Below, one piece after another: positions 32,301 through 35,570 of a DNA stretch of 35,570 nt (its first letter is position 1; each line of letters begins with the position of its first letter). Source of the DNA: Escherichia coli (GTDB taxonomy: Bacteria > Pseudomonadota > Gammaproteobacteria > Enterobacterales > Enterobacteriaceae); assembly GCF_003334385.1 (NCBI RefSeq), contig NZ_QOWN01000045.1; one strand, given 5' to 3'. Position numbers: made by a program.

Positions 32301-35300
32301 ATTATAAAGCGGGCAATGCGCGAGTGATTGTGGAATGGCGCGGCTGGCGTATTTTGCCGCTGGTGTGCTACGACTTACGTTTTCCTGTGTGGTCGCGCAA
32401 TCTCAACGATTATGACCTCGCCCTGTACGTCGCCAACTGGCCTGCTCCGCGCTCTCTGCACTGGCAGGCATTGCTGACGGCCCGCGCGATTGAGAATCAG
32501 GCGTATGTGGCGGGATGCAATCGCGTCGGCAGCGATGGCAACGGCTGCCATTATCGCGGTGACAGCCGGGTGATTAATCCGCAAGGAGAGATTATCGCTA
32601 CTGCCGACGCGCATCAGGCAACGCGCATTGATGCGGAGCTGTCGATGGCAGCATTGCGGGAATATAGAGAAAAGTTTCCGGCATGGCAGGATGCGGATGA
32701 GTTTAGGTTGTGGTGAGTGGGGGTTGTGTTTAAGGACGGGGAGAGTCGGGGTATTACTACGAAAGCCCGCTCCCCGCAAGGACTGACGCCAGGTAGTTTC
32801 TGTCCATGGCTGCTTTTCGCATCTTACGTCTTAACCCTGCCTTGAATACCTTCTCATTCGTCAAAATATTAATAGCAATGTGCCGTATCCCTGAAAATAA
32901 TTCTGCTGCGTTTCCTCTTCTTATTTTGTAGTCGTCTTCATTCATTACCACGTCCAGACGCCTGTGCAGCTTATTCTCCACGTGCCAGTGGTTTCGGATT
33001 GCTGTGGCGAACTTCTCTGCGGTTAAATCAGCAGAACTGATATAATATCTGACCGTCATTTCGAGCTCTTTCTTTTGTTCTGCTATTATGGACCGAAAGG
33101 AGACTGCCACGCATAATTTCTTCAGCCCTTTCCATTCAAACGTGAAATCAATAAGTTCATCAGGGACATCGCAAACAATATGAAGACGGATTTCTTCTCT
33201 GCCGTGACTCTTTTCACTAATTGCGTAACTGTCATGCTCTGGATTATTTAATTCTTTCAGCGGAAATTTTTCCTCGAAGGCTTTATTTAGCCGCCCCTGG
33301 TTTCCTTTTACCGCGAATAAATAATCACCTCCCTGTTTTTGTATCTTCTCTGCAATATCTTTCTGGCAACCCATCGCATCAGTTGTGATGATTTTTCCTT
33401 TAATATCCAGCATGTTAAGAAGTTCAGGGATAGCTGTAATCTCATTGGATTTCTCATCCGTCCTGATCTGTCCGATGACCAGACTGTGCATTGTTGAGAA
33501 CGCACTAATGACATGAATCGCTCCCTTGCGGCGACTCTTGTCATAAGAATGCCGGAGTGTTTTTCCATCAATTGCGATGACGTCTTTATCATCTGAAGTA
33601 TGGCAATCTCGCATCCAGTTAATAAAGCACTCGTGAAATTTTGAAGGACTGATACAGGATACAACTCTGGCGATGGTATCGTGAACAGGAATACCATTTT
33701 CAAAATCACCATATTGTTTTAAAAAATCGAGATGTGTTTCCCCAAAATCCTCTATATCTTCCCAGCCTTCTGCACCAGAAATAACGGCACAAATAGTCAA
33801 CAGTAGAATATCCGATAATTTATGTTCCACTTTCCAGGCTTGTCTGTAATCGGGGATAATAGAAATATGTTCCATCAATTTTTTAAGTTCCATTTTGTTC
33901 TCCTTAATTATGTAAGGAGTATTTGATCATGTATAAGCAATAAAAAACAGCTTCAGGTAATGAGGAATATCTCAATTTTTAAACATAAAATGCGAATTAT
34001 TTAGTACAAAAAATCAGCGTTACGTGATCTTTCCCTGCCCCTGCGCTCACTACCATGGCTCTTTACCACAGCAGCCGGGGTTGTTTGGGACCGACTTCCG
34101 ACAGCAGATCCCGGTGGGCCTGCCACCATCTCTTCACAAGCTTATGCTTATTACATGCAAAACGTCCCGTTTTGCATCTTTGTGCCTACGGCACACCGGT
34201 GATCTTTCCCTGATGAGGGATATATTAACTATTGAACATTAGCGCGAATTATTTAGTGCAAAAAATCAGCATCACGTGATGCTTTTCCTGCTATTAATAA
34301 CCTCCTCTATTTAACTATATTTTTCATTGATGCAATTCGTAGATTTGAAGAAGTTCAACTGCCACATTTTTATTTTTACTATCGCAATTTTTATACCATA
34401 CCCATGCTTCCGTATTTTTTACTTTTTTTAAATCATCCATAATAAAATCCCCACCAAAAACAGTAAAATACAATATTTCCTCATTAAAAATAAAACTCAC
34501 TGCCCCCCCCTCTTTTATTTTAATTTCCGCTTCATTTGTGTTCAAATCAATTTTTTTAATTACTCCATGTAAGTTGGGTTTTGATAGTTTTTCTACGCCA
34601 CCATCAGGAGCGGGTAATATACATCGTTTAAGAACTTTAGCATTTGCACATCCAATAACCCAAATTAGAATGCACACTCCCATGTTAATCGCATTAACGT
34701 GTCTTAAAACGTTCATATCTAATTCTCTCTCCAGGATGCGAATACATCCAACTTGTCACTTTCTTACACAACTCATCTACATCTTCATTCTGTGCACGGG
34801 TACATCCCATAGTTGGTTTCCAGCCTTGTCGAGGAGCATAAGGATCGCGCAACGATGATCCCCCACCATGTAGCCATCTTGCTCTAGTATCTGTAGTATA
34901 GATCTTCGTTGTGCCATATGCTGCCGATATTCCTGATTCATTTGTCTCACAACCAACGACTTCACCTGTATATGGATCACCAGCACCACGTTGAGAACGA
35001 CGATCAATTCTATTGCTACTATCAAAAGTCATTGAATCACCTGTTTCAGGATCATAATAAATAGTCACTCCTCCAGTCATATCAGTAAGAACAAGAGGAG
35101 TTTCAGCACCTGCCCGGTCTGGAGCGGGAGGCCCATATACACTTATAACTCGTTCTAACCCCAGTGGATCAGTGTAACGTATTGGTACCAGTGGATACGT
35201 GTATAGATTTATTCCCCCCTTCAACCCTATCGGATCCTGGGTGATATACCGCCCCTGCAACGGATCGTAGTACCGGTGACGGTTGTAATACAGTCCCGAC

Positions 35301-35570
35301 TCCTCATCATACTGCTGCCCCGGCAAACGGTACGGCTGGTACAGGTGATGCGGGTTCTCCTCATTAAGCTGGTTCCCCCACTCGTCATACTCCCCGCACC
35401 ACGCCGTTTCGCCTTCCGGGGTGATGAGCGCCTGCGGCAGTCCACGGTGGTCACAGTGGTAAAGATGCAGCCTCCGCTCCGGGATGTATGCATCCTCCAT
35501 CTGCGCGGCCATCTGTTCCGCCGTCAGCCCGCACTGCGCAAGCCATGCCTCACTCTCCGCACTCACCGCT

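Follow-up and report, generated by a model that had tools for sequence, protein, structure and literature searches.

The 35,570-nucleotide stretch of Escherichia coli DNA analysed here (RefSeq assembly GCF_003334385.1, contig NZ_QOWN01000045.1; hereafter the window) carries on its minus strand the 3′ end of an rhs gene (open reading frame [ORF] 34694–35566, running off the window edge at 35570). The C-terminal tip encoded by this gene is probably the variable module of a PAAR-Rhs effector delivered by a type VI secretion system (T6SS), namely a periplasmic peptidoglycan toxin of the YkuD (L,D-transpeptidase) fold that is neutralised by a lipoprotein of 130 residues encoded by the following ORF. 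In the mechanism that we propose, the Rhs shell would sit on a VgrG spike and be shot into an adjacent Gram-negative cell, and self-cleavage at the motif DPLGL would release the 153-residue tip. The freed domain would act as a cysteine peptidase or transpeptidase in which His96 serves as the base, Cys118 is the nucleophile, and Gly97 and Arg120 make up the rest of the site, and would attack the bond between meso-diaminopimelate and D-alanine (mDAP3-D-Ala4) of peptidoglycan stem peptides in the target periplasm, most likely as an L,D-carboxypeptidase or by D-amino-acid exchange, as shown for Tlde1a, so upsetting wall homeostasis and leading to lysis. The producer and its kin would be guarded by the co-transcribed lipoprotein, which would be exported, lipid-anchored facing the periplasm, and would bind and block the toxin.

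The PxxxxDPxGL demarcation that precedes variable tips is present in the window rhs, with DPLGL encoded exactly at 35156–35170 (minus strand) at the end of the Rhs core, where the self-cleavage freeing the tip is expected; the tip itself, 153 residues as the first-pass annotation of this DNA had estimated, occupies 34694–35155 (minus strand) including the stop codon. That annotation had also described a His followed after about 18 residues by (S/T)xGC, and had compared it with a motif in YafK of the same window. Both were recovered: the tip has His96 (codon 34868–34870), 18 residues, then T-M-G-Cys118 (codon 34802–34804), and YafK/DpaA (26330–27067) contains MIHGDCVSIGCYAM. The Pfam YkuD family (PF03734) matched the tip (E 3.4e-5, 24.9 bits) as well as 12 of 15 of its relatives at E≤1e-3 (best 3.9e-6), while an alignment of a profile of 122 family members with Bacillus subtilis YkuD (a reference sequence confirmed as identical to that of PDB entries 1Y7M and 2MTZ) gave a probability of 88.6% and E 2.6e-6. 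The active site of YkuD comprises His123, Gly124, Cys139 and Arg141; the profile alignment pairs Cys118 of the tip with Cys139 and Arg120 with Arg141, and extended alignments pair His96-Gly97 with His123-Gly124.

Among 121 family members with no more than 50% mutual identity, His96, Gly98, Gly99, Gln110, Cys118 and Asn123 were invariant, Gly97 and Arg120 were each present in 119, and conservation of at least 94% extended over Gly97, Thr115, Gly117, Thr119, Arg120, Asp125, Asp89, Arg91 and Arg93, giving the family signature D-x-R-x-R-W-[ILV]-H-G-G-G … Q-G-W-x-P-T-x-G-C-T-R-x-Q-N-x-D. The residue before Gly-Cys, Met116 in the tip, varies across the family (L, M, H and others). The tip has the YkuD beta-sandwich fold. 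On these comparisons the tip is a YkuD-fold domain with His96, Gly97, Cys118 and Arg120 as its predicted active site. In hhalign the family profile gave no significant match to the YafK of this window (E 0.53), though the Gly-Cys and Asn positions aligned.

The first-pass annotation had likened the tip both to YkuD enzymes and to Tlde1-type effectors; the YkuD-like catalytic domain was upheld by the PF03734 match and the YkuD alignment, whereas membership of Tlde1/DUF2778 was not. Tlde1a of the Salmonella SPI-6 T6SS, a toxin proven by experiment, has L,D-carboxypeptidase and exchange activity and exerts its toxicity in the periplasm (Sibinelli-Sousa 2020; 7UMA, PMC9638812), and the tip resembles it as a predicted T6SS toxin with an L,D-transpeptidase-type fold, a His/Cys site and an adjacent immunity protein that is here predicted to be exported. 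However, PF10908 did not match the tip at E≤10 and was listed for none of the 15 relatives, Tlde1a has a His-Cys spacing of 10 (H121, C131) where the tip has 22, and the tip has neither an S-H-G-C motif nor a second His. The strings GCTR, RWLH and RWIH were absent from the part of the published Tlde1 alignment covered here. By sequence, the tip is best placed in the canonical YkuD branch and would act like Tlde1 without belonging to it. According to the Tlde1 preprint, Rhs fusions occur in Shigella sonnei; the identity of the protein concerned (WP_052983304.1) with the tip protein could not be confirmed, and this accession was found neither among the cluster members sampled nor in the covered part of the Tlde1 alignment. 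Fragments 99% identical to the tip do occur in S. sonnei, under the NCBI name "L,D-transpeptidase family protein".

The same fold and site could also serve another reaction: an L,D-endopeptidase acting on 3-3 cross-links, a DpaA-like release of Braun lipoprotein, or the formation of aberrant cross-links. This is a possibility that we hold to be real but the less probable one, in that three of the top four Foldseek matches in the PDB were L,D-carboxypeptidases (Pgp2, Bd1075 and Csd6) and the only characterised T6SS toxin of the YkuD fold is a carboxypeptidase/exchange enzyme, although none of this discriminates firmly. For the predicted activity on the mDAP3-D-Ala4 bond the support is indirect, coming from proteins in which the tip domain is joined to LysM and SLT domains. 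Housekeeping enzymes of the fold (B. subtilis YkuD, Enterococcus faecium Ldtfm, Helicobacter pylori Csd6, Campylobacter jejuni Pgp2 and E. coli DpaA/YafK) are Sec-exported and work on the cell's own wall, often with LysM, peptidoglycan-binding or NTF2 domains; the tip, in contrast, has no signal peptide, lies behind an Rhs cleavage site, is paired with a presumed immunity gene and shares only 8–16% identity with them.

An exhaustive profile search found the tip domain in 339 representative clusters at E≤1e-3, always at the C-terminus and often in carriers of 1000–2100 residues; in 56 of 123 near-full-length matches it directly followed an Rhs-type DPxGL. Other carriers are of different architecture. 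The protein P0135 (locus L011, 3001–9291) is a filamentous-haemagglutinin-repeat protein of 2096 residues that ends in the tip domain and follows a TPS-domain protein, an arrangement by which it is predicted to be a CdiA-like two-partner-secretion carrier and not an Rhs protein. P0093 (654 residues) and its relatives combine a weak SLT/lysozyme-like region and two LysM domains with the tip domain, which is also carried by LysM-annotated Acinetobacter proteins in AFDB50 (A0A9P3CTW0, A0A5E9PI66). Such a range of carriers is what a polymorphic-toxin module shows, and the fusion to domains that bind or cleave peptidoglycan argues for the cell wall as target. Acinetobacter Tse4 (LysM, lytic transglycosylase and M23 endopeptidase) and Tae17 are likewise modular T6SS peptidoglycan effectors: in Acinetobacter LysM proteins the C-terminal module is a relative of the tip (36–42% identity), and P0093 shares the modular plan of Tse4, whose peptidase module, however, is a zinc M23 enzyme and not YkuD-like.

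Two further forms of the module were observed. Five distant relatives of 188–197 residues (P0028, at L002 6001–6591, and P0016, P0022, P0025 and P0120) consist of a Sec-type signal peptide, the last ~40 Rhs-core residues (SDPIGL…DPxGLD) and the toxin domain, and may represent the toxin module in a form exported by Sec; the P0028 gene follows a Transglut_core2 gene in L002–L004, and its surroundings contain no T6SS genes. Annotation in some E. coli makes the tip the final part of a VgrG protein (P0059, 672 residues, 29 contigs; hit H24, NZ_CP097426.1), apparently through a vgrG::rhs deletion that fused the two genes and left of Rhs just the tail and the toxin.

The ORF that follows the tip (34324–34716, minus strand) overlaps the rhs stop by 23 nt, and a purine-rich, Shine-Dalgarno-like run (GGAGAGAG) lies 8 nt upstream of its first ATG, with none at the second Met. 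It is as AT-rich as the first-pass annotation had stated (32% GC), and the signal peptide and VIGC lipobox on which that annotation had based a periplasmic partner hold up: the N-terminus fits the PROSITE PS51257-type expression (a signal peptide ending in [LVI][ASTVI][GAS]C), with the V-I-G-C codons at 34648–34659, the lipobox Cys at position 23 and an Arg within the first 7 residues. The product is predicted to be a lipoprotein and is presumed, from its place and export signal, to be the cognate immunity protein of the tip. NCBIfam and PADLOC returned nothing for it, and in Pfam there was only a weak match to DUF4367 (E 0.0017).

In all seven distant loci that have a downstream gene (L009 and L013, which lack a usable one, and P0060, whose contig came without DNA, were left out), the gene right after the toxin encodes a protein of 171–199 residues with an N-terminal hydrophobic, signal-like segment (L002 6597–7190, L006 8857–9444, L007 4853–5437, L008 9212–9775, L010 8860–9459, L011 9294–9809 and L012 8707–9285). 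These seven proteins form one weakly related family, often ending in S-x-S-E or A-D-E, which is probably the ancestral immunity family of the tip toxin; PADLOC returned nothing for it and Pfam no confident family, its sole match being to DUF2845 at a marginal E of 0.1 in one member out of four. It has no detectable relation to the 130-residue protein (hhalign probability 0.2%), and since an export signal is predicted for both kinds of partner, the exported location appears to be conserved although the immunity protein itself is not. Within the toxin domain, Cys69 and Cys130 are both present in 31 members, both absent in 90 and split in one, a covariation whose statistic is inflated by shared ancestry; the pair probably forms a disulfide in the tip, and Tlde1a too has conserved disulfides. 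Three independent lines (the predicted lipoprotein partner, the exported partners of the distant relatives and the Cys pair) thus point to action of the tip in the periplasm.

The partner gene can also outlive the toxin. In strain fS25a an IS1-linked deletion took the T6SS and rhs, while the 130-residue ORF and the ISAs1 copy were kept; the ORF there would be an orphan immunity gene, and its retention is as expected for a gene that protects. It lies at 6001–6360 of L014 (NZ_CM176579.1), with an IS1 copy at the junction beside yafT/tRNA-Asp, and NCBI starts it at the second Met (119 residues), with which the signal peptide would be too short. We weighed against periplasmic action the alternative that the YkuD-like tip works in the cytoplasm on a substrate other than peptidoglycan, for example as a thiol protease, and that the 130-residue ORF is not its immunity protein. 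Cytoplasmic action is usual for Rhs tips and the ORF has no recognisable family, but the exported downstream proteins in E. coli and in all seven distant loci, the occurrence of the toxin domain in one chain with LysM and SLT domains, the covarying Cys pair that suggests a disulfide and the retention of the immunity ORF after loss of the T6SS make this explanation very unlikely.

The genomic setting supports the assignment to a T6SS effector. The Rhs-core end within the window (35156–35570, minus strand, truncated by the window edge) is matched by RHS_core and Rhs_assc_core in NCBIfam and by RHS in Pfam; the fragment matches RHS_core at E 2e-77 over the last 136 positions, and the Rhs_assc_core match ends at fragment residue 137, with GC content and cross-genome conservation shifting near DPLGL. 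In complete genomes with 99.9% identical DNA the full allele encodes 1414 residues; a full-length copy (L005 8495–12739) scores 2505 bits on RHS_core (cut-off 2000), contains YD repeats and begins with GGGKPAARQGD, which includes the PAAR-type motif KPAARQGD, although Pfam matches only DUF6531 and RHS_repeat and no PAAR model. In these genomes the gene lies immediately 3′ of hcp-vgrG, in the order hcp, vgrG, rhs, 130-residue ORF, and so borders a complete T6SS cluster with tssB, C, E, F, G, tagH, tssJ, K, dotU and clpV.

The tip and the 130-residue ORF were found together at ≥95% identity in 1026 of 5426 complete E. coli genomes (≥99% in 1004), once per genome and never on plasmids, and in these 1026 genomes the ORF was always co-located with the tip, whereas the adjoining Rhs core matches 3811 E. 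coli genomes. The Rhs-core part has 58% GC, the tip 44% and the ORF 32%, against 49% for the entire window, so that the modular tip replacement proposed by the first-pass annotation from base composition agrees with both measures. A tip that has decayed or lost its activity, its likeness to YkuD having outlasted any present function, would fit the frameshifts in rhs in some genomes and the fact that E. coli T6SSs of this type are often silent in the laboratory; given a tip at least 99% identical in 1004 genomes, catalytic residues invariant across a family of 339 clusters and an immunity gene that is intact and co-conserved, we consider a relic highly improbable.

Several points nevertheless weigh against a YkuD-fold toxin that acts in the periplasm and is neutralised by the 130-residue protein. 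The Pfam YkuD scores are modest (22–25 bits), and PDB sequence searches with the tip alone or with the family profile gave nothing meaningful. Where the [S/T]HGC motif has its second His, the tip has Met116; since this position is variable across the family, the second His is not a family feature, and with it absent the chemistry of the tip may differ from that of the characterised enzymes. The immunity role of the 130-residue ORF is drawn solely from position and export signal, relatives of the ORF are confined to E. coli, Shigella and Salmonella, and its AlphaFold model is unusable (predicted local distance difference test score, pLDDT, 34) because the relatives are all near-identical or frameshifted E. 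coli copies. A recent survey places the action of Rhs tips usually in the cytoplasm, so that a tip acting in the periplasm would be a less usual Rhs cargo. The rhs gene is truncated by the window, and it is frameshifted in strain UMNK88. Finally, no experimental work on the tip family was found in the literature searched. A more specific version of the proposal, in which the tip belongs to a distinct clade of periplasm-acting, YkuD-fold interbacterial toxins whose chemistry may differ from that of Tlde1 (cutting 3-3 cross-links or the Lpp-peptidoglycan link, for example) and in which the unrelated E. coli lipoprotein has replaced the ancestral immunity protein, is advanced only tentatively; on this version the tip would be a rare Rhs tip with a periplasmic site of action.

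The window is part of the E. coli chromosome, with the order dpaA(yafK)-yafJ-lpcA-fadE-ivy-yafV, an ISAs1 transposase gene, the 130-residue ORF and the 3′ end of rhs. The transposase gene (32757–33893, minus strand; ISAs1 family, H-repeat type) lies directly 3′ of the rhs-immunity module, the classical layout of Rhs elements, and parts the T6SS island from yafV. A terminator-like hairpin followed by a T-run (34268–34283, minus strand), found by a pattern scan as a consensus match only, lies ~40 nt past the immunity stop, where the rhs-immunity transcript probably ends. The interval from the ISAs1 copy to the immunity ORF holds a direct repeat of 37 nt (33992–34028 and 34244–34280, 92% identical), whose second copy contains the hairpin; the repeat may be a duplicated ISAs1 end or a leftover of an earlier tip module.

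A toxin class of this kind was described by Zhang 2012 (PMC3482391) as Tox-LD-peptidase, carried on RHS proteins, linked to T6SS, partnered by Imm16 or Imm57 and predicted to attack the cell wall. The tip shares with it the LD-peptidase fold (YkuD, PDB 1ZAT-type), the His/Cys pair, the C-terminal place on RHS-repeat proteins and the adjacent immunity genes; that description is purely computational, with Imm16/DUF2750 and Imm57 as partners, whereas neither the 130-residue lipoprotein nor the family of 171–199 residues matches any Pfam immunity family. The Rhs-borne LD-peptidase toxin is hence a type already known, of which the tip appears to be a new member with a predicted activity, and with the class foreseen since 2012 and the domain already named in public annotation, its biology comes as no surprise. 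A review of E. coli T6SSs lists Rhs-CT1 to CT10, none of which is of the L,D-transpeptidase type.

About one fifth of complete E. coli genomes carry the tip, which is therefore probably a common weapon in competition among E. coli of the gut. The cell wall would be an unusual target for an Rhs tip, and the case bears on whether Rhs shells deliver enzymes that act in the periplasm. If the proposal is true, the tip and its relatives would form a second branch, of canonical type, of toxins with the L,D-transpeptidase fold beside Tlde1, together with two immunity families that have so far gone unannotated.

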